Assembly: GCA_002699125.1 (NCBI GenBank) | Contig: PABI01000032.1 | Location: 15,588 to 79,587, forward strand | Source of the DNA: Anaerolineaceae bacterium | Lineage (GTDB): Bacteria; Chloroflexota; Anaerolineae; Promineifilales; Promineifilaceae | Length of the DNA: 64,000 bases | Direction: 5' to 3' | Part shown: one piece after another, positions 3,139 through 59,644 of the stretch | How positions within the stretch are numbered: position 1 is the first letter of the stretch | Layout of the letters: each line of letters starts with the position of its first letter | Position numbers and translations under genes: made by a program | The notes under the pieces: model-generated | The model's input: the letters and a program-made list of their open reading frames with translations, nothing else | Told to the model about the DNA's origin: nothing | Database searches by the model: none

Positions 3139-4134
3139 TTAGAGTGGCTGCGGGCGGGGCACCTTTACTTTGGGATGGGCGATAGCCGCCGTGCGTGGTC
3201 CGGCAGCCTCTTCCTGGGCCGCGGCGGGCAGGGGGATTTCTAAACGCTGCCCGACGTACAGCTGGGCGTCCGGCTGGTTGTTGTACACCTGGATGGCGCG
3301 CCAGCGCAGCGAATCATCATAGTAGCGGCGGGCGATGCCGCTGTAGGTGTTGCCGTGTACCACGGTATGAAGCTCTACTTTTTTGCCCCAATTGCCTACA
3401 CGGTTTAGCCAGTGAACGGCCGTTTCCCCATCGCCCAAATTTGGTGCAGCGACACCTTCATAGGCGGCCAGCGACAAAATGCGGCGGCGCAGCTCGCCAT
3501 CGATGGCAATGGCGTTAAGCGCTTCTTCTCTTTCTTTTTTGATTTCGTCAGGGATGAGTTCTTCTTCAGCAACTTCACCGACAAATGGATAGCTGTAGTC
3601 GGGGATGAGACAGCCAAAATTATCGTTTTCTGTGTAATGGAAGCCGCCCCAGCCGTCCAGAAACTGTTTGTTGCTGAAGCGGAAATATTCCCCTTTGGCA
3701 CGCTGGGCCCACAGGCCAAAGAGCGGATCGTGGACAAAAACGTGCGTGTCATCATAGCCGGTGACGACCAAAAAGTGGCCGTATTCAAACTGGTTGCCGG
3801 TGAGTTTGACCCACGGCTTGTATTTCACCAGTGCAATGAAGGCGTGGCCATTGTCGATGTTTTCGCGTAAGCCTTGCAGCGCCTGGTTGGCATTGGCGTA
3901 TTTTTTGTAGGTGAGCGTGAGCTGTCCGGCGCCCCAGGCGGCGTTTTTCAGGTCAGGGATGTAGGTAAATTTGGGGCGCACGCCGATATAAGCGTACAGT
4001 TCATCCGGGGTGATGGCGACGCGCTTGCCGTTGAGCAGCATGGCGACGCTGGTCGGCCCACAATCACTGGAATGATCTTTGGCATCTTTGTCCCATTGGG
4101 AACGATACGGTATTTGCAGCTTTTTTTCGGTCAT
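3139..4134 (-). CDS. C39-like (papain-fold) peptidase domain protein with C-terminal LysM
   Basis: N-terminal IPYRSQWD...SSDCGPTSVAMLL and later HFLVVTGYDD fit a Cys/His peptidase_C39-like arrangement. C-terminal HTVVHGNTYSGIARRYY...YVGQRLEIP is a LysM motif. Confidence 0.7.
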   Translation of the reverse strand: MTEKKLQIPYRSQWDKDAKDHSSDCGPTSVAMLLNGKRVAITPDELYAYIGVRPKFTYIPDLKNAAWGAGQLTLTYKKYANANQALQGLRENIDNGHAFIALVKYKPWVKLTGNQFEYGHFLVVTGYDDTHVFVHDPLFGLWAQRAKGEYFRFSNKQFLDGWGGFHYTENDNFGCLIPDYSYPFVGEVAEEELIPDEIKKEREEALNAIAIDGELRRRILSLAAYEGVAAPNLGDGETAVHWLNRVGNWGKKVELHTVVHGNTYSGIARRYYDDSLRWRAIQVYNNQPDAQLYVGQRLEIPLPAAAQEEAAGPRTAAIAHPKVKVPRPQPL

Positions 4135-4283
4135 CGTTACTACTCCTCGTAAATCAGCGTCCTATTTTGTGCAGAGAAAATCAGGTTTTTGAAGGCGATT
4201 TCATATTGGTCATGTGAACGGCCGTCATTTTATCTGCTTTGTGGTGGGGTTGCCATTGTCAATGAGTGAGTATAGGGGTTTCG

Positions 4284-4313
4284 TTGTCAGATCAGTGAGC
4301 AGGCACTTATAAT
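4284..4313 (+). promoter_or_regulatory. Sigma-70-like promoter positioned for a leaderless or near-leaderless mRNA
   Basis: TTGTCA (4284-4289), 18 nt, TATAAT (4308-4313). The ATG at 4323 is only 9 nt past the -10. No Shine-Dalgarno. Confidence 0.4.
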
Positions 4314-4322
4314 CAGCCGTCT

Positions 4323-6077
4323 ATGGGAATTTTGCAGAAAAAGTTGTGGCGTTTGGTGCTGGTCGTGCTGGCAGTGTGGTTGTTTTTCTTTTTGGCGCTG
4401 GACAGCATGGTAAATGACAGCCCAACAATGGATGAACAAAACCATCTGGCGCGGGGTGCGGCGTTTGTGAAAACGGGCGATCCCCGGCTAAGTCTGGAGC
4501 ATCCGCCGCTGGTGAACAGCCTGAGCGGCCTGCCGCTGCTGCTTCTTCCCGACTTGCACTTTCCGTTTGACCATCCCAGCTGGACCGATTTACAGCCGCC
4601 GGACGTGTATTGGTATGTCTTCGCCGACCAATTTCTCTGGCAGGTCAACCAGGACGTGAAGCGCATGATTTTTCTGGGTCGGCTGCCCATTGTCTTCTTG
4701 ACGCTGGGATTGGCACTGGTGGGGTTCCACTTTGCCCGTGATTTTTGGGGACGGCCGTCTGCCACCCTTGCTTTTATTTTATTGCTGTTTGAACCGAATA
4801 TTTTGGCAAACGGCCGTCTCGTCACCACCGATTTGGGCGGCACGCTGTTCATCACCCTGGCGCTGCTGTTGATGTGGCGTTTGTGGACGGCACCAGGTTG
4901 GGCCTGGCGGCGCTGGCTGGCGGCCGGCGTGGGGCTGGGGCTGGCTTTTGGCAGCAAGCTTTCGATGTTGACGTTTGTGCCCATCTTAAGTGTACTGGCC
5001 ATTTTGCCGATGTTTAACGCGGAGGCGCATGCAATCCCGGATTGCCGGCGCAGAGGGGTTTTTCAGAGGTTGGTGCAGTTGGGTGGGGCGGGGCTGATCT
5101 CTGTTTTGGTGGTGTGGGCGATTTTTGGGTTTGAGTGGGGGATGTTTCGGTTTCCCTCGGAGACGTTTGATTTTTTGAATCGGTTCAGCGGACCGATGCC
5201 TACGTTTTGGGCGGGCGTTGATCAGATTGTGAATGTGAGCCGGGAAGGACGTATGGCCTTTTTGCAGGGCGAATCGTCTAACCAGGGCTTTTTGCTCTTT
5301 TTCCCCGTGGCATTTTTGGTGAAGACGCCGTTGGTGCTGCTGGTGGGTTTGTTGGGGTTGGTATGGTTGGGCTGGAAACGGCCTGTACTGAGCCTGCCGA
5401 AGCGGCCGTCCACTCGCCCCAAATTACTTTTCCTCTTCATCCCCGCTGTTTTGTACTTTACCGTTAGCGTCATCAGCGACATCAACATTGGTTACCGGCA
5501 TTTGCTGCCAATTTTGCCACTCATCATTGTGGGGTTGAGTGGGCTGCCGATGTATTTTGCTGGAGAAATTCAGGATAAGCGTGAGTGGTGGCGCGGCGGG
5601 GACGCCAGCCACAGCAGAGCGGTGGCGCTGGTTTTAGCGCTGGGCATTTTGCTGCCGACGCTGTGGATTCATCCGCATTATTTGAGCTATTTCAACCTGG
5701 CGGCAGGTGGTCCGGCCAACGGAGCCTCAATTTTAGCCGACAGCAGCAACGATTGGGGCCAGGATTTGCTGCGCCTGCGGGATTGGATGGCAGAAAATGA
5801 GCAGGAAACGATCAAGCTAGGTTGGTTTGGCACGGCCGATCCTGCCTATTACGGAATTAACTTTGAACCACTGCCTGGTTTCCCCAGGGCAGAATTCTTG
5901 GCCTTGTGGGCCAATCCGCCGTTTAATCCGGAAAATCCTGAACCGGGTTTGTACGCCATCAGCGCCAGCAGCCTGTGGGAAAGCCATTGGGAAGCACGGC
6001 ACGTTTATGCCTGGTTCCGCGCTCAGGAACCAACAGACCGGATTGGGTATTCGATTTATATTTATGATTTGCGTTAA
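4323..6077 (+). CDS. GT-C fold membrane glycosyltransferase (ArnT/PMT-like), paralog of 9908-12301
   Basis: 584-aa polytopic ORF with an acidic DE motif in the first loop (MDEQNHLARG). Blocks shared with 9908-12301: LANGRL(V/A)TTD, DIN(I/L)GYRHLLP, HPHYL..FN, DWGQDL, GYSI(Y/F).Y. It lacks the shared C-terminal domain. Confidence 0.8.
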   Translation: MGILQKKLWRLVLVVLAVWLFFFLALDSMVNDSPTMDEQNHLARGAAFVKTGDPRLSLEHPPLVNSLSGLPLLLLPDLHFPFDHPSWTDLQPPDVYWYVFADQFLWQVNQDVKRMIFLGRLPIVFLTLGLALVGFHFARDFWGRPSATLAFILLLFEPNILANGRLVTTDLGGTLFITLALLLMWRLWTAPGWAWRRWLAAGVGLGLAFGSKLSMLTFVPILSVLAILPMFNAEAHAIPDCRRRGVFQRLVQLGGAGLISVLVVWAIFGFEWGMFRFPSETFDFLNRFSGPMPTFWAGVDQIVNVSREGRMAFLQGESSNQGFLLFFPVAFLVKTPLVLLVGLLGLVWLGWKRPVLSLPKRPSTRPKLLFLFIPAVLYFTVSVISDINIGYRHLLPILPLIIVGLSGLPMYFAGEIQDKREWWRGGDASHSRAVALVLALGILLPTLWIHPHYLSYFNLAAGGPANGASILADSSNDWGQDLLRLRDWMAENEQETIKLGWFGTADPAYYGINFEPLPGFPRAEFLALWANPPFNPENPEPGLYAISASSLWESHWEARHVYAWFRAQEPTDRIGYSIYIYDLR

Positions 6078-9907: not shown

Positions 9908-12301
9908 ATGCGTAAAGAAGGGATTCAAGCCATTGGGTCTGAGTGGAGGCGTTTGGGGTGGCTTTTGCTCATTTTTTTGTCGTTTTTTGGCCTCGCAATA
10001 TCCAATCTTTCCCAACTATCACCAACATTTGATGAACAAGGTTTTATTACCAGAGGCCTGGGCTATCTGCGTGGTGAAAACCAGCATATGCGCGTGGGCC
10101 ATCCCCTGGGCCTAAACGGGTTGAATGCGGCTTTGCTGGTGGGAGATGATACGGTGCAGCTGCCTACATCGGACCCCTCCTGGCAGCTGTCCAGTTTTCA
10201 TCGCCCTTCTGAACTGTTTTTATGGGAAATTGGCAATGACGTTGCGCACGTCATGTTTCTGGCTCGGCTGCCGACCATCTGGCTGGGGCTGCTGCTGGTG
10301 GCGCTGGTGGGCCGGTGGGCCTGGGAATTGACCCAACGAAGCTGGGCGGCTCTGCTGGCAATGGTATTAGCAGCCTTTGATCCCAATTTGCTGGCCAACG
10401 GCCGTCTGGCTACCACCGATTTTGGATTAACTTTTTTTGCTTTTTTGGCTGGCTTTTTGCTGTGGCGTTTTGGTAAACGGCCGTCCTGGCCACGTGCCAT
10501 TTGGGCTGGTGTTGGCTTTGGCCTGCTGCAAAACACAAAATTTACCGCCGGTCTGTTTGTTCCACTTTTCGCGCTGGTTCTTCTTTTGTTTGTCGTTAGC
10601 TGGTATCGACAATCAACGCTGAAACCGCCACTTTTTAGTTGGAACTCGCCGCTGGTTATACTGGTGGTTGCCTTTCCGCTGGCTGCTTTTTTGACCTTGT
10701 GGGCTGCCTATGGTTTCCAGGTTGGTACCTTGCCCGACGGTTTGCCCACCATGCCGCAGCTGGCCGGACTCACCGTGCCGCTGTCGCACCATTTGGAGCA
10801 GCTGCTGGACATTGGCGGGCGGCTGCAAAAAAGCACGCCCGCGTTTCTGATGGGCAGTTATTCTGACAGCGGTTGGTGGTATTATTTCCCGGTTGCCTTT
10901 GTGCTCAAGACGCCGCTGCCCACCCTGATTTTGCTGTTGGGAACCGGAGGGGGGCTGCTGTGGTTAGGCGTTCGTCAATGGCTGGCTGGCCGCAGGCTGA
11001 GTTTAGCCGCATTGTTGATTCCGCCATTGGGTTACTTTGGCTTTGCCCTGACGACCGATATTAATTTAGGCTACCGACATCTGTTGCCGGTGCTGCCTTT
11101 TTTCTTTGTGCTTATCGCGGTAGTCTTGTTTTGGCTGAGTGGGGAAACGGCCGTTTCAACAAGCTCACTATGGGCTCTTTGGCAGCGTTACCAACAAATC
11201 GCGCTTGTGGGTTTGGTAGGTTGGCTGGCCGTGATCGCCTTTTGGCTGCACCCGCACTATCTGGCATTTTTTAACGTCTTCGCCGGCGGGCCGGACGGTG
11301 GCTGGCGCTATCTGGTCGACAGCAACCTGGATTGGGGTCAGGATTTGGGCGGCTTAAAAAACTGGATGGATGAAAATGGTGTCGAGCAGGTGTGGTTGAG
11401 TTATTTTGGTGAAGGACGGCCGTCTTATTATAACATCAACCACATCGGCCTGGACAGTTTTCCACCCCGGCTGATGAATCCACAGGCACGGCCGTTTTAT
11501 CCCCTTGACCCTGCACCCGGCATCTACGCCATCAGCGCCACGACGTTGCAGGGGGTTCATTTTGCTGACCACGACACGTTTGTCTGGTTTCGCCATAAGG
11601 AGCCACTGGACAAGGTAGGCTACAGCATTTTTTTGTACGAGGTGCCACCCTATGGCGAACCTACCGATGTGGTGCTGGCAGGTTTGCAGCTAGATGAGAT
11701 CGCCCCGGAAGATTTTGCCCGGTTCCAAACCAACCAGGTGACGCCGCGCTGGGTGAATGCCGATAGCGCATTTTTTCAGCCTGCCGCAGCTGAGTTCTGG
11801 TTGGCCGAGCGTGAAGGTTTTGAAATGGAGTGGATGGAGACGGCCGTTTCCCGCCAGCCCATCACCGAAAATGAACAATATTCCCTCTACCGCGTGCAAA
11901 GCAACAGCCAAACGGTCGTAGCCAGCCACCAATTTAGCCTGGCCGAACACCGAATTGAACTGCTGGACCAGCCGCCCACCGTTTTGCTTCAAGATGACAT
12001 TTTGCAGTTAACCACTCGCTGGCGCAATGAAACTGGTCCGGTTCCACTGAAAATCTACGTTCATCTGCTGGACGAATCAGGCCAAATCGCTGCCCAGTGG
12101 GATGGCCTGGATGTGGCTTGGGAGGGTTGGCGTGCCGGGGACATTTTGTGGCAACAGCACGCCATCGCGCTGCGGCCCGAGCTGCCCGCCGGGCCCTACG
12201 ACCTGCGCGTTGGATTGTATGATCCAGCAGCAGGCACCCGCTGGCAAACGGCTGACGGTGCCGATTTTGCCTACCTTACAACTGTGGAGGTGGCCCCGTG
12301 A
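9908..12301 (+). CDS. GT-C fold membrane glycosyltransferase (ArnT/PMT-like) with shared C-terminal domain
   Basis: 797-aa polytopic ORF with first-loop FDEQGF motif. Paralogous to 4323-6077. Shared C-terminal domain at 11933-12298. Confidence 0.85.
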   Translation: MRKEGIQAIGSEWRRLGWLLLIFLSFFGLAISNLSQLSPTFDEQGFITRGLGYLRGENQHMRVGHPLGLNGLNAALLVGDDTVQLPTSDPSWQLSSFHRPSELFLWEIGNDVAHVMFLARLPTIWLGLLLVALVGRWAWELTQRSWAALLAMVLAAFDPNLLANGRLATTDFGLTFFAFLAGFLLWRFGKRPSWPRAIWAGVGFGLLQNTKFTAGLFVPLFALVLLLFVVSWYRQSTLKPPLFSWNSPLVILVVAFPLAAFLTLWAAYGFQVGTLPDGLPTMPQLAGLTVPLSHHLEQLLDIGGRLQKSTPAFLMGSYSDSGWWYYFPVAFVLKTPLPTLILLLGTGGGLLWLGVRQWLAGRRLSLAALLIPPLGYFGFALTTDINLGYRHLLPVLPFFFVLIAVVLFWLSGETAVSTSSLWALWQRYQQIALVGLVGWLAVIAFWLHPHYLAFFNVFAGGPDGGWRYLVDSNLDWGQDLGGLKNWMDENGVEQVWLSYFGEGRPSYYNINHIGLDSFPPRLMNPQARPFYPLDPAPGIYAISATTLQGVHFADHDTFVWFRHKEPLDKVGYSIFLYEVPPYGEPTDVVLAGLQLDEIAPEDFARFQTNQVTPRWVNADSAFFQPAAAEFWLAEREGFEMEWMETAVSRQPITENEQYSLYRVQSNSQTVVASHQFSLAEHRIELLDQPPTVLLQDDILQLTTRWRNETGPVPLKIYVHLLDESGQIAAQWDGLDVAWEGWRAGDILWQQHAIALRPELPAGPYDLRVGLYDPAAGTRWQTADGADFAYLTTVEVAP

Positions 12302-14367
12302 GCCGTCGGGTTTTGCTGCTGCTGGTGGTGCTGCTGGCCGCTTTTTTACGGCTTTGGCAGCTGGAATCCCTGCCGCCGGGCCTGTACCATGACGAAGCGT
12401 ACAACGGCCTGGATGCCCTCTCGCTGGTGCAGGGCAAGACATTCCCCCAATTTTACGAAGGCTGGGAGCTGTATGCCCAGGATGCCCATGCCGATAATCC
12501 GCCCACGCCGATGCGCTGGCCCGTTTTTTTTGAAGGCAATTACGGCCGTGAACCCCTCCACGTCTACCTCATGGCCGTCTCCATCTGGCTGTTTGGTCCC
12601 ACGCCGTTTGCCATTCGCCTGGTTCCCGCTCTCTCTGGTGTCCTGGCGGTGCTGCTCACCTATTTCGCCGCCAAAGAACTCCTGGCTGCCAAAAAAAAGC
12701 CACCTAACAATAACCAATCTCCAATAACCAATCTCCAATCTCATATTCCTGTGCTGGCCGCATTTTTTCTGGCAGTTTTGGTGCCCGCCATTCACTTTAG
12801 TCGCTTTGGCCTGCGCATGATGGTGTTTGTGCCGGTTGAAATGCTTACCGTCATCTTTTTCTGGCGCGGCTACAACCTCAGCCAGGTCACCGTGTCACCT
12901 GGTCACCGTGTCACTTGGTCATTTTTACTTGCTGGCTTCTTTCTTGGATTGGGCCTCTACGTCTATGCCGCTGCCCGGCTGTTTCCATTGCTCTTCGTTT
13001 TGTTTATCCTATTTTGGGCGTGGCGCGATTGGTCCGGCTTGCGCCAAAACGTGCTGAATATTGGGGGCATGGCGGCCGTGGCCGTGCTGACGGCGCTGCC
13101 GCTGCTGCTCTATTTTTGGCGCTATCCGTACTTTTTTGTGTTTCGTATTGCCTACGTAGCGAACAAAGGGCTGGGCACGGTCGAGGATCAGCCGCTGTTG
13201 ACCTGGCTGTTGAATGTAGGGCGGGTGGTGCGCGGCCTGTACTGGCAGGGCGAAACACATTTGCGCCATAATTTGCCAGGACGGCCGTATCTCGATCCCC
13301 TTCAAGCCATCTTTTTTACCCTGGGCCTGCTGCAAACCATTCGCCAAAAACTCAATCCCCGCACCGTGTTCCTGCTGCTGTGGCTGCTGGTGATGCTGCT
13401 GCCCACCATCATGAGCGGCGACGCCCCCCACTTTGGTCGCATGACTGGCGCCGCCGGTGTGGTGGCGATTGTGGCGGCGGTTGGCTCTGTCTGGCTTGGG
13501 GAATGGTTAATGGTTAATAGTAAATGGTTAATGGTTAATGGGAAACGCTCGCCGAAGACCTTTCACTTTTTACTTTTCACTTTTTACTTCTTACTCCTCG
13601 CTGGCAGCCTCGCCTTCACCCTCCGCGATTATTTTGGTCGTTACGCTGGCCATCTTCAGCTGGCCGCCGATTTTTACCTGCCGGATTGGGAATTGGGACA
13701 GTTTGCTGCGGAACAGCCGGAGGGAACGGCCGTTTACCTCACGCCCACCCAGGAAGAAATGGCCACCATCTACTTTGCCTTGGCCGACCCCGATGGCATT
13801 AGCAGTTTTTCCGGGGCGAGCACACTCGTTCCGGCAGGGCAGCCAGAGGCGGCGGCACTTTACCTGGTGCGTACCGAGAATGAGGCCAGTTGGCAGCAGC
13901 TGACCAACTTCTTTACCGAATATGAGACGGATCAATCGCGGGATGATTTTTGGGCACTGCACGTGCCAGAGAGCAGTGCCCAGGCGATTGAGGCGGTGGT
14001 TGCGGAGGAAACGGCCGTTTCCTTTGCCAATACCATTCAACTGTTAGGCTGGTCGGTGCAAACGGAGGCTAACCAGGTACAGGTCAATCTGGCCTGGCAG
14101 GCATTGGCAGAAATGCCGCTGGCCTACACGGCATTTGTGCATGTTCTGGATGGCTCGGGGCAAATTGTAGCGCAGCTAGACCGGCAGCCGGAAGGCTATC
14201 CCACCACCGATTGGCAGCCGGGCGAGGTGGTGGTAGACAAGTACACCATCGCGCTGCCAGATGGGCTTCCGCCGGGTCCTTTTATTTTGCAAACCGGATT
14301 TTATGATTTGGCGACATTGAACGGTTTGGGTGAAACGGTCGTACTCACGGAGACCTTCGCCCCATGA
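12298..14367 (+). CDS. GT-C fold membrane glycosyltransferase (GT39/ArnT-like) with shared C-terminal domain and in-frame tandem-repeat insertions
   Basis: 689-aa polytopic ORF. The GTG start overlaps the upstream stop (GTGA). Loop motif PPGLYHDEAYNG. Shared C-terminal domain at 14017-14364. It contains four short tandem-repeat blocks that keep the frame open. Confidence 0.8.
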   Translation: MSRRVLLLLVVLLAAFLRLWQLESLPPGLYHDEAYNGLDALSLVQGKTFPQFYEGWELYAQDAHADNPPTPMRWPVFFEGNYGREPLHVYLMAVSIWLFGPTPFAIRLVPALSGVLAVLLTYFAAKELLAAKKKPPNNNQSPITNLQSHIPVLAAFFLAVLVPAIHFSRFGLRMMVFVPVEMLTVIFFWRGYNLSQVTVSPGHRVTWSFLLAGFFLGLGLYVYAAARLFPLLFVLFILFWAWRDWSGLRQNVLNIGGMAAVAVLTALPLLLYFWRYPYFFVFRIAYVANKGLGTVEDQPLLTWLLNVGRVVRGLYWQGETHLRHNLPGRPYLDPLQAIFFTLGLLQTIRQKLNPRTVFLLLWLLVMLLPTIMSGDAPHFGRMTGAAGVVAIVAAVGSVWLGEWLMVNSKWLMVNGKRSPKTFHFLLFTFYFLLLAGSLAFTLRDYFGRYAGHLQLAADFYLPDWELGQFAAEQPEGTAVYLTPTQEEMATIYFALADPDGISSFSGASTLVPAGQPEAAALYLVRTENEASWQQLTNFFTEYETDQSRDDFWALHVPESSAQAIEAVVAEETAVSFANTIQLLGWSVQTEANQVQVNLAWQALAEMPLAYTAFVHVLDGSGQIVAQLDRQPEGYPTTDWQPGEVVVDKYTIALPDGLPPGPFILQTGFYDLATLNGLGETVVLTETFAP
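12709..12743 (+). repeat. In-frame tandem repeat (AATAACCAATCTCC x2 plus partial; heptamer-like AAT(A/C)(A/T)CC x5)
   Basis: aataaccaatctcc at 12709-12722 and again at 12723-12736, then aatctc(a). Encodes NNNQSPITNLQSH. Confidence 0.8.
12885..12921 (+). repeat. In-frame 16-nt tandem repeat GGTCACCGTGTCAC(C/T)T x2.3
   Basis: ggtcaccgtgtcacct at 12885-12900, ggtcaccgtgtcactt at 12901-12916, ggtca at 12917-12921. Encodes VTVSPGHRVTWS. Confidence 0.8.
13502..13543 (+). repeat. In-frame heptamer array (AATGGTT)n, six units
   Basis: aatggtt aatggtt aatagta aatggtt aatggtt aatggga. The 21-nt super-period encodes WLMVNSK WLMVNGK. Confidence 0.85.
13564..13598 (+). repeat. In-frame heptamer array ((C/T)ACTT(T/C)T)n, five units
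   Basis: cactttt tactttt cactttt tacttct tactcct. Encodes FHFLLFTFYFLLL. Confidence 0.8.
14007..14022. repeat. Example of the iterated palindrome: perfect 16-mer GGAAACGGCCGTTTCC (core ACGGCCGT)
   Basis: Read directly from the sequence. The identical 16-mer recurs at 57449-57464. The 8-nt core occurs ~135 times in the window. Confidence 0.95.
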
Positions 14368-16265
14368 CGATGCGAACCACTTTTGTCCAAAAATGGGGCA
14401 TCTTTGTTGTGCTTGGTCTGGCGGTGCTGCTGCTGGCAGGTTATCTGGCGTATGCCTTAAACCTGACCAGGGGCGTGTTAGGCGTGCCGCTGGATGACGC
14501 CTGGATCCACTTTCAGTATGCGCGCAATCTGAGCCAGGGCGATGGTTTTAGCTATGTGCCCGGCGTGCCCACGCCCGGCTCCACGGCCCCGTTGTGGACG
14601 CTGCTTCTGGCAGGCATTGGCCTGTTCACCGATTCGTTTGTGTTGCCGGCCATGCTGCTCAGCGCCGCCCTCTTTTTGCTCACCATTTGGCTCACCTACC
14701 GGCTTACGCTGGACCTAACGGATCATGTGGGGATTTCGCTGCTGGCGGCAGCCGGGCTGGCGGTGACCGGGCGCATGGTGTGGGCCGGCTGGTCGGCGAT
14801 GGAGGTGACCCTGTTCACGGTGCTGAGCGTGGCGGCAGTGTGGGCTTACCAGCGGCGCGGCTTGAGCGGCTTGACGGCCGTCTTGTTTGCCCTGGCCAGC
14901 CAGACGCGGCCGGAAGGGCACGTATTGTTTGCTTTGGTCGTGCTGGATGGGCTGCTGGCCTGGCGCTGGCCTTATGGGGAGAAACGGCCGTCGCCCCCCT
15001 GGCGGCAGTTGTTTATTGCAGTGCTCATTTACGGGGCGATCCAGTTACCTTACGCCTTGTTCAGTTTATCGGTGACGGGACGGCCGTTGCCCAACACCTT
15101 TTACGCCAAGGCGCGGCAGAGTACCCTGTACAGCTGGCGCACGCTGTGGGAGACGCTGCAATATCATTGGGATGACAATTGGTTGACTTTGCTGCTGCTG
15201 CCTTTTAGCCTGTCCACGCTTTGGCGGCGCAACCGGCTGGTGGGAAGCTGGCTCGTGGGCCTATGGCTGCTGCTGCCATTTATTGTGCCCTTTTTATGGC
15301 ATCACGGCCGTTACACCATGCCGCTGCTGCCTTTTCAGATGATTGTCGCGGCGGTTGGGCTGCATTGGCTAGGCAGCAGACTTTGGCCGCGGCGGCAGGC
15401 GGTTTGGCTGGCCTTTGCCGGGCTGTGGCTTGGCATCGGGCTGTGGGGCGCACCGTATTGGGCCGGGATGTTGGGCTACAATGCCCGCGAAATTTTGGAG
15501 ATCGACGTGGCGCTGGGGGAATGGCTGGCGGGCAACGTGCCCGCAGAAGAAATTGTGGCCATCGACGACATCGGCGCGATTGTGTTTAAGGGACCGCGGC
15601 CAATTGTGGATTTGAACGGGCTGGTTTCGCCAGAGATGTGGCCGGTGCTGGATGATCCCGATCCGCCAACGGCGGCAATGCGCTTCCTGGCGACAAGTGG
15701 CGTGCGCTACCTGGCCATCTTTCCCGATTGGCACCCGCTGCTGGTGAGCGATCCGGCGATTGCCCAACCCATTCAGCGGTTTACCACGGACACCCATTCG
15801 ATCATCTTTGCCCAGGAGGCGGTGGTGTACGAGATGGATTGGCCTTACCGCCAGCAAATCGAGCCGCAGCATGAGGCAACGGCCGTTTTCGCCGATCGTA
15901 TTCAACTGAGAGGGTATGATTGGCAGCCGGATGATCAGGCGGTGGCCCTAACGCTGTATTGGCAGAGCGTGACGGCCGTTCCGGAAAGCTACAAGGTGTT
16001 TATCCACATCGTGGATGAAAATGACACTATCGTGGCCCAGGCAGACCGCTTACCGGTGAACGGATTGGCCCCCACCTGGCGCTGGCAGCCCGACGACCTG
16101 GTGCGCGACGTGTACCAGATTCCGCTGCCGCCAGAGCTGCCGCCGGGTCAGTACCAGGTGCGGCTGGGGTTGTACACGGAAGCAAACGGCCGTCTTCCCT
16201 TGAGCAACGTCGCATCCCCTACCGATTTTATAACCCTGCTAGAGTGGCAACTCAAAGATAGTTGA
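14364..16265 (+). CDS. GT-C-like polytopic membrane protein with shared C-terminal domain
   Basis: 633-aa ORF. The ATG overlaps the upstream stop (ATGA). N-terminal loop motif PLDDAWIHFQYARNLSQGDGF resembles arabinosyl/mannosyl GT-C families. Shared C-terminal domain at 15882-16262. Confidence 0.8.
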   Translation: MTMRTTFVQKWGIFVVLGLAVLLLAGYLAYALNLTRGVLGVPLDDAWIHFQYARNLSQGDGFSYVPGVPTPGSTAPLWTLLLAGIGLFTDSFVLPAMLLSAALFLLTIWLTYRLTLDLTDHVGISLLAAAGLAVTGRMVWAGWSAMEVTLFTVLSVAAVWAYQRRGLSGLTAVLFALASQTRPEGHVLFALVVLDGLLAWRWPYGEKRPSPPWRQLFIAVLIYGAIQLPYALFSLSVTGRPLPNTFYAKARQSTLYSWRTLWETLQYHWDDNWLTLLLLPFSLSTLWRRNRLVGSWLVGLWLLLPFIVPFLWHHGRYTMPLLPFQMIVAAVGLHWLGSRLWPRRQAVWLAFAGLWLGIGLWGAPYWAGMLGYNAREILEIDVALGEWLAGNVPAEEIVAIDDIGAIVFKGPRPIVDLNGLVSPEMWPVLDDPDPPTAAMRFLATSGVRYLAIFPDWHPLLVSDPAIAQPIQRFTTDTHSIIFAQEAVVYEMDWPYRQQIEPQHEATAVFADRIQLRGYDWQPDDQAVALTLYWQSVTAVPESYKVFIHIVDENDTIVAQADRLPVNGLAPTWRWQPDDLVRDVYQIPLPPELPPGQYQVRLGLYTEANGRLPLSNVASPTDFITLLEWQLKDS

Positions 16266-57985: not shown

Positions 57986-59644
57986 TTAGCCCTCGGCGGG
58001 TCCCCAACCGCCGCCCCCCGGCGTTTCAATTTTCAGAATATCGTCCGCATCGAGCCGGCAGGTGAATTTGCCCGGCAGCTCGGTGTTGCTTTCCCCTTGA
58101 ATGAGGCTGTTGCGGCCCGGACGGCCGTTTTCGCCGCCTTGTAACCCATAAGCTCCCTGCTTACGTCGTTCGCTGGTTACGGTCACCGTTACGGGCGTAA
58201 GAAAGCGGATGCTGCGGATGAGGCCATCGCCGCCGCGCTGCTGCCCCGCGCCGCCAGAGTGGGGACGCAGGCTGTATTGTTCTAGTCGCAACGGAAAGCT
58301 GTACTCCAGCGCCTCCACCGGCGTATTGAGCGTGTTGCTCATGTGGACGTGCATGCCGCTGCCGCCATCGGCTTCTGGTCCGGCACCCGCGCCGCCGCCG
58401 ATGGTTTCATAGTAGGCAAACGGCCGTCCGCTGCCCAGATGTTTGCCGCCAAAAGTAAGATTGTTCATCGTGCCCTGGCTGGCGGCGGGAATGAGCTGGG
58501 GCAGTGCCTGAGCCAGCGCGCCAAACACGGCGTCGGTGATGCGCTGGGACGTTTCCACGTTCCCGGCGGCCACAGCGTGCGGCTGGGGTGGGTCCAGCAA
58601 GGAACCTGGGGGAATGGTGACGCTAATCGGCGCAAACGCCCCCTCGTTCATGGGCAAATCGGTTTGCACCAGAGCCAGGGCGGCACAGCGCAGGCAGTAG
58701 GCCACGGCCGATTGGGCAATGGCCGGCACGGCGTTGAGATTGCCGCGCACGGCAGCGGCTGTACCGGTGAAATCAACATGCAGCTGGCTGCCGTTCACGG
58801 TGAGAGTTACCTTGATGGGAATGGGGGGGCTGTCCGGTTGGCCATCGTCGTCGAGAAAGTCGGTGAAGGTGTAACGGCCGTTTGGTATTTGGGAGACGGC
58901 CGTTTTAGTCAAAGTCTTCGCGTACTCTATAAGAGCTTCGGCATGAGTTAGCGCTTCATCCAGGCTGTAGCGATCCACAATTTCTGCCAGCCGTTTTTCA
59001 CCGATGGCGTGGGCTGCCAGCTGGGCGGCCAAATCGCCGTTGCGCTCGTCGGGGGTGCGCACGTTGCGCAGGATGAGCTGCCAAACTGCCTCGTTGCGCT
59101 CACCGGCGGCCACCAGCTTAATGGGTGGAATAATAATTCCTTCCTGGTAAATCTCGGTGGAAAGGGGCATCGAGCCGGGCGACATGCCACCGACGTCGGC
59201 GTGGTGGGCGCGGCTGGCTACAAAAAATGAGGGGGTGACAAGGTGAGGGGGTGACAAGGTGACAAGGTTGTCAGACTGATCACCGTTTACCGATGACGGT
59301 TCACCAAAAAAGACGGGTGAGACGAGCGTAATGTCCGGCAAGTGGTTGCCGCCCTGGTATGGATCGTTGACGATGATGACGTCGCCGGGGGCGAAGGGAG
59401 CGCATTGCTCAATGGCGGCCTGGACGGAGGCGGGCATGGCACCGAGATGTACGGGAATGTGGGCTGCCTGGGCCAGCATACGGCCGTCACCCAAAAAGAG
59501 GGCGCAGCTAAAGTCCAGACGTTCTTTAATGTTGGGGCTGTAGGCGGCGCGGCCCAGCGTCACGCCCATCTCTTCAGCCACGGAAGCGAACAGATAGCGA
59601 AAAATTGAAAGGGAAGCGGCCGTTGGTTTGGTCAGATTGTTCAT
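57986..59644 (-). CDS. Hydantoinase B / oxoprolinase family protein with in-frame repeat insertion
   Basis: IFRYLFASVAEEMGVTLGRAAYSPNIKERLDFSCALF, NDPYQGGNHLPDITLVSPVF and ASRAHHADVGG are family hallmarks. No hyuA-like partner is adjacent. Confidence 0.85.
   Translation of the reverse strand: MNNLTKPTAASLSIFRYLFASVAEEMGVTLGRAAYSPNIKERLDFSCALFLGDGRMLAQAAHIPVHLGAMPASVQAAIEQCAPFAPGDVIIVNDPYQGGNHLPDITLVSPVFFGEPSSVNGDQSDNLVTLSPPHLVTPSFFVASRAHHADVGGMSPGSMPLSTEIYQEGIIIPPIKLVAAGERNEAVWQLILRNVRTPDERNGDLAAQLAAHAIGEKRLAEIVDRYSLDEALTHAEALIEYAKTLTKTAVSQIPNGRYTFTDFLDDDGQPDSPPIPIKVTLTVNGSQLHVDFTGTAAAVRGNLNAVPAIAQSAVAYCLRCAALALVQTDLPMNEGAFAPISVTIPPGSLLDPPQPHAVAAGNVETSQRITDAVFGALAQALPQLIPAASQGTMNNLTFGGKHLGSGRPFAYYETIGGGAGAGPEADGGSGMHVHMSNTLNTPVEALEYSFPLRLEQYSLRPHSGGAGQQRGGDGLIRSIRFLTPVTVTVTSERRKQGAYGLQGGENGRPGRNSLIQGESNTELPGKFTCRLDADDILKIETPGGGGWGPAEG
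59228..59274. repeat. In-frame 16-nt tandem repeat TGAGGGGGTGACAAGG x2 plus partial and inverted copy
   Basis: Units at 59228-59243 and 59244-59259, partial tgacaagg at 59260-59267, then inverted ttgtca. On the minus strand it encodes part of SSVNGDQSDNLVTLSPPHLVTPS. Confidence 0.8.

Follow-up and report, generated by a model that had tools for sequence, protein, structure and literature searches.

Four tandem arrays inside a glycosyltransferase gene

The window analysed here, the whole 64,000-nucleotide stretch of contig PABI01000032.1 from a Chloroflexota genome, encodes three overlapping GT-C paralogues, the second of which carries four short tandem repeat arrays within its open reading frame (ORF). 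The presence of these arrays had been claimed in an earlier reading of the letters (the original prediction); Tandem Repeats Finder (TRF) located them at the same places, and the peptides quoted for them proved to be translated correctly (Table 1). A period of 7 was detected at 4.1-5.7 copies in arrays 1, 3 and 4. The heptamer readings have 81-87% matches, and the 14- and 16-mer readings run to only 2.1-2.3 copies.

Table 1. The host coding sequence (CDS), its four tandem arrays and the spacer between the last two, in window coordinates
Feature	Position	Strand	Basis and unit	Product
Host CDS	12298-14367	+	ORF	689 aa; GT-C fold membrane glycosyltransferase (ArnT/PMT/STT3-like)
Array 1	12708-12743	+	TRF: CAATAACCAATCTC x2.3, 100% matches; alternative reading CCAATCT x4.1	NNQSPITNLQS, residues 138-149
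Array 2	12885-12921	+	TRF: GGTCACCGTGTCACCT x2.3, 95% matches; octamer-type unit, period 8/16	QVTVSPGHRVTWS, residues 196-208
Array 3	13502-13543	+	(AATGGTT)6; TRF span 13502-13541, AATGGTT x5.7, 87% matches	EWLMVNSKWLMVNG(K)
Spacer of arms 3/4	13544-13560	+	from sequence	basic turn (K)RSPKT
Array 4	13561-13598	+	TRF: YACTTTT x5; alternative reading 14-mer x2.1	FHFLLFTFYFLLL

Arrays of this kind are not expected by chance in a gene with these codons. When the codons were shuffled 1000 times and arrays of period 7, 8, 14 or 16 with a TRF score of at least 40 were counted, the real gene had four, compared with a mean of 0.007 and a maximum of one in the shuffles, only 7 of which contained any array. 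The arrays had also been described as markedly AT-richer than the surrounding gene. This holds for array 1 (GC fraction 0.34) and for arrays 3 and 4 (both 0.29) against 0.56 for the whole gene, but not for array 2 (0.59). The arrays are genuine DNA: an independent Logan assembly (ERR1726863) has the same DNA at 2670 of 2670 bases, and orthologues in other metagenome-assembled genomes (MAGs) carry related arrays at the same sites, which together rule against the assembly artefact that had been raised as a possibility.

The host protein did not reach the curated Pfam cut-off for PMT or PMT_2 (PMT_2 scored 20.1 bits against 26.1, over residues 86-131 only), and a PDB sequence search with a profile of the orthologues returned no match. 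We therefore used a fold search. The AlphaFold 2 (AF2) model, with a predicted local distance difference test score (pLDDT) of 79 and a predicted template modelling score (pTM) of 0.77, was matched by Foldseek to AglB, ArnT, STT3 and Pmt4 with E-values of 2e-9 to 6e-5. The best match was AglB (3waj, 1.8e-9), and ArnT (5f15) was found at 7.5e-8 with a TM-score of 0.46/0.56. In the model, a multi-pass N-terminal transmembrane domain with the GT-C fold is joined to a C-terminal soluble domain, as in members of the GT-C class, and some of the more than 750 homologues of the protein are labelled ArnT-like or GT39 by their sources. Residues Y30-H31-D32-E33, in the first extracytoplasmic loop, are invariant in 24 orthologues, and by analogy with the family this acidic YHDE motif would be catalytic. 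Further invariant motifs, PA[IV]HFSRFG, WQGETHLRHNLPGRPYLD and SGDAPHFGR, lie like HDE outside the array sites.

The three GT-C paralogues, of 797, 689 and 633 aa, stand in a row at 9908-16265 with start/stop overlaps of 4 nt. All three have a similar beta-rich C-terminal domain with the common motif ..[FV]HL[LV]D..G.[IV][AV]AQ.D......W..G[DE]......I.LP..LPPG.Y.....[GL][LF]Y, and among them only the middle gene carries heptamer arrays.

In the AF2 model, the four array sites map to inter-helix turns or helix tips of low to moderate pLDDT. Disorder is predicted for site 1, a loop (pLDDT <50 at residues 132-144) that joins helices 103-129 and 146-161, and site 2 comprises the turn following helix 177-195 together with the opening turns of helix 202-219. 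Helix 379-414 has site 3 at its C-terminal end, and the last transmembrane helix (419-449) has site 4 as its N-terminal half; the basic turn GKRS (residues 415-418) separates the two. For arrays 3 and 4, the encoded segments extend their helices in the model (pLDDT 58-80). Since the C-terminal beta-rich domain of GT-C enzymes should be extracytoplasmic, the 415-418 turn should be cytoplasmic. Flanking basic residues suggest the same for sites 1 and 2 under the positive-inside rule, on which we relied because helix counts from the two ends of the protein conflict.

A genome-wide class of heptamer hairpins filtered for open frames

In the 8.05-Mb assembly as a whole, the commonest tandem-repeat period found by TRF is 7, with 345 arrays, to which 187 arrays of period 14 can be added. 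Six families make up 262 of the 345 period-7 arrays: AAAAGTG (82), AATCGGT (57), AATCTCC (47), AATTCAC (42), AACCATT (18) and AATCAGT (16). The unit CCAATCT of array 1 belongs to AATCTCC and the AATGGTT of array 3 to AACCATT, and array 4 matches the CACTTTT (AAAAGTG) family, the most numerous in the genome; the octamer-type unit of array 2 lies outside this census of heptamer families. A genome search for the same heptamers accordingly finds all three families dispersed in many arrays. With hundreds of such loci in the genome and arrays at the same sites in orthologues, the picture of four separate insertions private to this gene is contradicted.

The arrays commonly occur as inverted pairs. 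At a lower TRF threshold, we collected 212 neighbouring 7/8-nt arrays no more than 80 nt apart, counting as inverted those with at most one mismatch per unit. This yielded 131 inverted pairs and one direct pair, with a median spacer of 8 nt. Of the 131 inverted pairs, 127 start with the G-rich arm, which must reflect a true asymmetry of the element, as a palindrome reads alike on either strand. The GGAGATT/AATCTCC family, to which we return below, contributes 17 strict inverted pairs genome-wide.

Relative to a crude ORF-based gene model, 34 pairs lie in spacers between same-strand genes, at a median of 9 nt past the upstream stop and 23 nt ahead of the next start; 57 touch a gene edge and 19 lie entirely within a gene. 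Genes hold fewer arrays than expected, although many arrays do fall within them: 44% of the period-7/14 arrays lie in ORFs no shorter than 600 nt, compared with 82% of random positions. Arrays are found in 161 long ORFs, including those of other GT-C-like membrane proteins and giants resembling non-ribosomal peptide synthetases (NRPS), and some of the 161 contain complete in-frame pairs, for example those encoding KEIGDWRL + LISNLQSLISNL and SVSGKRLSVIGERST + PLITDYRLLITI.

Five complete in-frame inverted heptamer pairs in other long ORFs were located at G000 C141:4733-4794, C155:14771-14833, C95:32342-32394, C23:19684-19749 and C117:41463-41548. Several of these ORFs are GT-C-like, and the typical peptides are IGDWRLE + PISNLQS and SVIGNRLSV + ITDYRLP. 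Elsewhere in the window, another ORF contains a 16-nt repeat, TGAGGGGGTGACAAGG x2.2, at 59228-59268. It belongs to the octamer family GGTGACAA, of which inverted pairs are found at other loci of the genome (C127:222392, C100:28640).

Where arrays lie inside ORFs, they are filtered for an open reading frame, as seen in their strand bias, in the editing of stops and in a length difference of whole codons. In ORFs, the stop-free orientation is taken by 26 AAAAGTG arrays against 4, by 20 AATCGGT arrays against 5 and by 14 AATTCAC arrays against 1; for AATCTCC, which is stop-free on either strand, the two orientations number 23 and 15. A pure (AATGGTT)n array would place TAA in all frames of both strands. 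In array 3, A13522 and A13543 replace the T of would-be in-frame TAA codons, giving AGT-AAA and GGG-AAA. A third copy of the 14-mer in array 1 would likewise put TAA in frame, and the third unit is instead a plain heptamer. The orthologue L002 (L numbers denote orthologues throughout) is edited in the same way, with CGG-TTA and GGT-GAG where CGG-TAA would be expected. Furthermore, in a relative with 91% protein identity, recovered from the Logan assembly of SRR26074165, array 3 is shorter by exactly 21 nt, or three units, while the other arrays have equal length and single-base differences only. That selection kept the frame open after insertion, as the original prediction had proposed, is borne out by the two TAA-to-AAA changes, the genome-wide strand bias and this 21-nt difference.

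Arrays at the same sites in orthologues

When the TRF arrays of 66 orthologous genes were mapped onto residues of the window protein, they proved to be nearly confined to residues 128-150, 194-207, 398-417 and 418-434, with some at the N terminus. Arrays are present in about half of the orthologues, 33 of the 66 having none. Their units vary by lineage and include CAATCTC, ACCGATT, ATCACGC, AATGGTC, TTCACCA, CAGTAAG and octamers. Arrays are a property of the lineage: the flanks of array-bearing orthologues are also array-rich, at 0.57 arrays per kb compared with 0.07 for the rest (an 8-fold difference). All 14 genomes of the same genus that were searched contain the pattern (ACCGATT)3, with at most one mismatch, and none of 16 more distant ones does; the reversed control pattern gave 0. 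The sites are lineage-variable and indel-rich among the orthologues, in agreement with the earlier proposal that the arrays sit in lineage-specific segments. Homologous peptides without repeats in distant relatives, which the original prediction had named as counter-evidence, are borne out only in part: relatives do have homologous peptide segments, but these keep their repeat structure.

Folding, scored as z against shuffles, was applied to twelve orthologue segments. Eleven form in-frame hairpins, with free energies from -21 to -60 kcal/mol and z between -2.7 and -7.8 (in ten, z is -4.3 or below), and the twelfth, from the closest GTDB relative (L003), folds weakly (z -2.05). At site 1, the full pair is found in the basal orthologues L009 and L013, where it encodes LEIGEWRL...QSPISNLQ (z -5.5 and -5.6). 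An inverted pair occupies site 2 in L020, L049, L044 and L051, with folded z of -6.6 for L020, -5.7 for L049 and -2.7 for L051, and the arms at sites 3 and 4 pair in L001, L002, L004, L070, L030 and L060 (z -4.3 to -7.8). The hairpins have the character of palindromic passengers translated in frame, lying inside a conserved ORF and being absent from the array-free half of the orthologues.

In the window gene itself, arms 3 and 4 folded together give a periodic but insignificant stem (z -0.85), and arrays 1 and 2 fold no better than shuffles. We gave up the notion that this copy still functions as a hairpin of RNA or DNA, because the folds of its arrays are not significant. In view of the pairs at these sites in orthologues, we read arrays 3 and 4 as the diverged G-rich (5') and C-rich (3') arms of a single hairpin, now unpaired. 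Array 1 would be a C-rich (3') arm from the GGAGATT/AATCTCC family of hairpins, left alone after the loss of its partner, and array 2 would be the C-rich arm of an octamer family that has lost its G-rich partner.

At site 3 of L057 (L057:3389-5519), the G-rich hairpin arm is broken by an insert of about 40 nt (GTCGCTGCGCGACCGCTTCGCG...), which is GC-rich and partly palindromic. This insert resembles an element nested in an element, and ATGTCGCTAAGCGACCGCTTCGCGT also flanks an array at G000 C113:31785.

On a tree of the orthologues built with the array sites masked, the window gene falls in a 10-member clade in which all genes have arrays. There are two more all-array clades, array-free clades are interleaved with them, and the tree requires at least nine changes. 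The spacer and right arm of the window gene align with those of L004 without gaps, at 70% identity over 63 nt, and in 11 of the 19 differences the window gene has T for C or G in L004. Substitutions to T would convert ACCGATT/ACTGCTT units, as in L004, into YACTTTT. The spacer motif AAACGCTC.CCGA is common to the window gene (13544-13560) and L004, and the spacer GTAAAAAGCAAAC, with the motif GTAAAAAGCAAACTGATTAC, is common to L002 and L057. We favour ancestral occupancy of the sites with fast change in place.

Origin of the arrays and their relation to known repeats

To the element class, polarity, shared sites, stop avoidance and in-frame length change observed above, we add an account that we regard as likely: the arrays in the window gene are translated, partly decayed pieces of short palindromic repeat hairpins that are found lineage-wide. 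The element would be a hairpin in which each arm repeats a word of 7 nt (sometimes 8 nt) 3-8 times in tandem, the G-rich arm lying 5' of the C-rich one. Such elements would mostly fill short intergenic spacers, with a sizeable minority inside genes, where their persistence would need a tolerated peptide, a strand and frame that are free of stops (or in which the stops have been mutated) and a net length of whole codons. In the GT-C enzyme, the tolerant places may be three turns between transmembrane helices, probably cytoplasmic and away from the conserved periplasmic motifs, and arrays 3 and 4, as arms of one element, would today supply the tips of the final two transmembrane helices. Elements would already have been at these sites in the ancestor of the clade that includes Leptofilum, and would later have changed in place by point mutation, unit gain or loss and possibly replacement, as neutral passengers for the enzyme. 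The arrays themselves may be generated by slippage plus fold-back copying, or by some mobilising activity.

Several points weigh against this account. At least three deep clades are occupied at the same sites and interleaved with array-free clades, a pattern that repeated targeting fits equally well as descent with loss. L034 and L057 are sisters (100/100 support), yet their sites 3/4 differ, with AATGGTT/CACTTTT in one and CGGTTAT/ACCGATT in the other, and distant GT-C paralogues of the same genome have pairs at comparable relative positions; neither fits a simple history. Across the clade, third-codon-position identity at site 1 is 0.71 compared with 0.52 for the rest of the gene, at about the 95th percentile of random windows, and this could reflect some constraint on DNA or peptide or ongoing homogenisation. 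No mobilising enzyme was found: of 7 matches to the Y1-transposase family PF01797 in the genome, none is flanked by arrays, one array lying about 1 kb off. Finally, an attempt to derive sidedness from helix counts gave contradictory parity from the two model termini and was abandoned, which bears on the placement of sites 1 and 2.

A further reading, which we consider unlikely, is that an undescribed dedicated process makes and renews the hairpins, either an ultra-small mobile element or fold-back/template-switch repair specific to Promineifilales and related Anaerolineae. As part of the same idea, and with the same modest chance, a G-rich array would be written first and its complement after it, the same sites would be revisited, and the GT-C turns would be rewritten hot spots, not relics.

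Another, improbable possibility is repeated fresh insertion, in which a tiny mobile element or site-preferring repair hit the same permissive sites independently and the arrays of the window gene are recent. The unlike families in the sisters L034 and L057, the interleaving of occupied and array-free clades with its nine or more changes, the pairs at similar relative positions in distant paralogues and the few dominant families common to hundreds of loci all fit such a history. Against it stand the gapless spacer and right arm within the Leptofilum clade, where differences are mostly substitutions to T, and the spacer motif that L002 and L057 have in common; nor were target-site duplications, conserved ends of the elements or a linked transposase seen.

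We also doubt, to a similar degree, that the peptides or mRNA hairpins are selected modules, useful for instance in translation pausing before helix insertion, in mRNA stability or in partner binding. Such a role is consistent with the occupation of several deep clades at the same sites, with the strong in-frame hairpins kept in many orthologues (z -4 to -8), with the helical extensions modelled for arms 3 and 4 and with the raised third-position identity at site 1. It is at odds with the absence of arrays from about half of the orthologues, with units and encoded peptides that vary by lineage, with the loss of the hairpin in the window gene and with the predicted disorder of site 1. In addition, sites 2-4 change as fast as or faster than the remainder of the gene, site 3 having an identity of only 0.39. 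With site 1 borderline and sites 2-4 average or fast, strong nucleotide-level constraint on the arrays was rejected.

It is highly improbable that the arrays are contingency tracts, in which slippage by one unit shifts the frame and switches a surface-glycan enzyme off and on in the population: the units of 7, 14 or 16 nt are not multiples of three, a one-unit slip would inactivate the gene, unit number varies between close relatives and the gene plausibly encodes an envelope-glycan enzyme, but the tracts are short and imperfect, the frame across them is kept in all full-length orthologues, the sole length variant seen is the in-frame 21 nt, the independent assembly ERR1726863 is identical, and many unrelated genes, NRPS-like ORFs among them, contain the same arrays in frame. 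The suggestion of phase-variable tracts in the original prediction finds no support in these data. A candidate phase variant, L034 of Candidatus Leptofilum gracile (3383-5700), was set aside: its +1 shift occurs around residue 580, well away from the arrays, in a MAG built from long reads, and is probably a long-read assembly error, although a real pseudogene is conceivable. Contingency loci of host-adapted pathogens have long perfect tracts that are out of frame in some strains or cells. They resemble the present case in having a tandem repeat, with a unit that is not a multiple of three, in a surface-glycan gene; here, in contrast, the arrays are short and imperfect, and none is out of frame in any orthologue examined. 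The host gene is probably an ordinary, functional GT-C enzyme gene, and not a switchable one.

Turning to known repeats, tandem arrays of heptamers have been on record since 1990. The short tandemly repeated repetitive (STRR) heptanucleotides of heterocystous cyanobacteria were reportedly described by Mazel et al. in 1990. The likeness to STRR that had been noted in this gene holds in that both have tandem 7-nt units, few families and many dispersed copies. As far as we know, the STRR1-3 units equal none of the dominant units of this genome, whose host is not cyanobacterial. The affinity to cyanobacteria hinted at earlier is not borne out: the organism belongs to the Promineifilaceae (Promineifilales, Chloroflexota), its nearest named relatives are Candidatus Leptofilum proximum and gracile of the same family, and the homologues and orthologous loci all come from Chloroflexota MAGs.

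Earlier surveys, as summarised in two papers, ranked heptamers first in abundance among the long simple repeats of many bacterial genomes, and both papers describe heptamer arrays as mainly intergenic (PMC4679880, PMC4692102). Examples are GGGAATC in Xanthomonas and GGGGA(C/T)T in Nostoc, and for the Xanthomonas arrays inverted arrangements capable of forming stem-loops were noted (Rehm et al. 2015, PMC4692102). The STRR, Xanthomonas and Nostoc heptamers share with those described here 3-8 tandem copies, few families per genome, hundreds of copies and an intergenic excess. Unlike them, the present arrays come from Chloroflexota, are built from the units AAAAGTG, AATCGGT, AATCTCC, AATTCAC and AACCATT without G-tracts of the G4 type, have the G-rich arm first in nearly all pairs and are in large share translated in frame, whereas the published ones are described as showing a deficit in coding regions. 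A second system consists of TAACTGA direct heptamer repeats in Beggiatoaceae, some cyanobacteria and Bacteroidetes (MacGregor 2015, PMC4679880). These form arrays of 2-6 units beside start codons, with indels in 7-nt steps between strains; they have stops in all frames of one strand, and copies in ORFs are only in the 'reverse' orientation, encoding the seven-residue peptide repeat LSVISYQ (PMC4679880). The stop-bearing strand is avoided in ORFs there as it is here, and the unit is one base from the ACTGATT family of this genome. The TAACTGA arrays are nearly all direct (with one inverted case) and have few ORF copies, mostly in hypothetical proteins, whereas here inverted pairs dominate and copies lie in conserved enzymes at sites shared by orthologues.

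The best-known in-frame palindromic repeats are the Rickettsia palindromic elements (RPE), which are translated, tolerated in surface or loop regions and regarded as selfish passengers. Ogata et al. are said to have described them in 2000 as elements of 100-150 bp with a conserved unique sequence, in frame within protein genes. The resemblance, drawn from description, is that palindromic repeats lie in frame inside genes; RPE differ in having no arrays of 7-nt words and no unit-number dynamics, and in belonging to another phylum. Repetitive extragenic palindromic (REP) sequences and REP doublets forming hairpins (REPINs) are hairpin repeats present in hundreds of copies between genes and mobilised by REP-associated tyrosine transposases (RAYTs) (Bertels and Rainey 2011, PMC3116915). 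In common with the present elements, they are short, can form hairpins and occupy intergenic spacers in hundreds of copies. Unlike them, REPs by definition lie outside genes, consist of a fixed sequence of about 20 bp instead of an arm of tandem words, and are tied, family by family, to their own RAYT gene. We rejected a RAYT/REPIN system here, as the Y1-transposase genes of the genome lack flanking heptamer arrays. No paper was found on heptanucleotide repeats in Chloroflexi/Chloroflexota or on repeats of Promineofilum.

The gene is one well-resolved instance of a repeat class related to the known heptamer repeats, and it offers a clean example that can be aligned, with repeats at the same three turns of the protein in dozens of species. 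Edited-out stops, gains and losses of three units and drifting arms make the rates and direction of change measurable. The repeats add peptides such as PISNLQS, ITDYRLP, HFSLFTF, IGDWRLE and EWLMVNGK to proteins of activated-sludge Chloroflexota, and such peptides can mislead annotation, domain searches and structure prediction.

Two further observations concern the genome and its relatives. The original prediction had mentioned a palindrome like the cyanobacterial highly iterated palindrome HIP1; a hyper-abundant palindrome does exist, but its sequence is ACGGCCGT and not HIP1. This octamer has 11,907 copies in 8.05 Mb, about 1 per 680 bp, which is an estimated 70-fold or so over the expectation from composition, compared with 712 copies of the runner-up palindrome and 79 of HIP1 (GCGATCGC). 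It is a HIP1-like hyper-abundant palindrome in a Chloroflexota genome, with examples in the window at 12543-12550, 13726-13733 and 14010-14017. Lastly, L050 (DATLAB010000021.1) is filed as 'Patescibacteria group bacterium' and is near-identical to the Chloroflexia MAG gene L053; a mistake of binning or labelling in the public record is the most likely cause.

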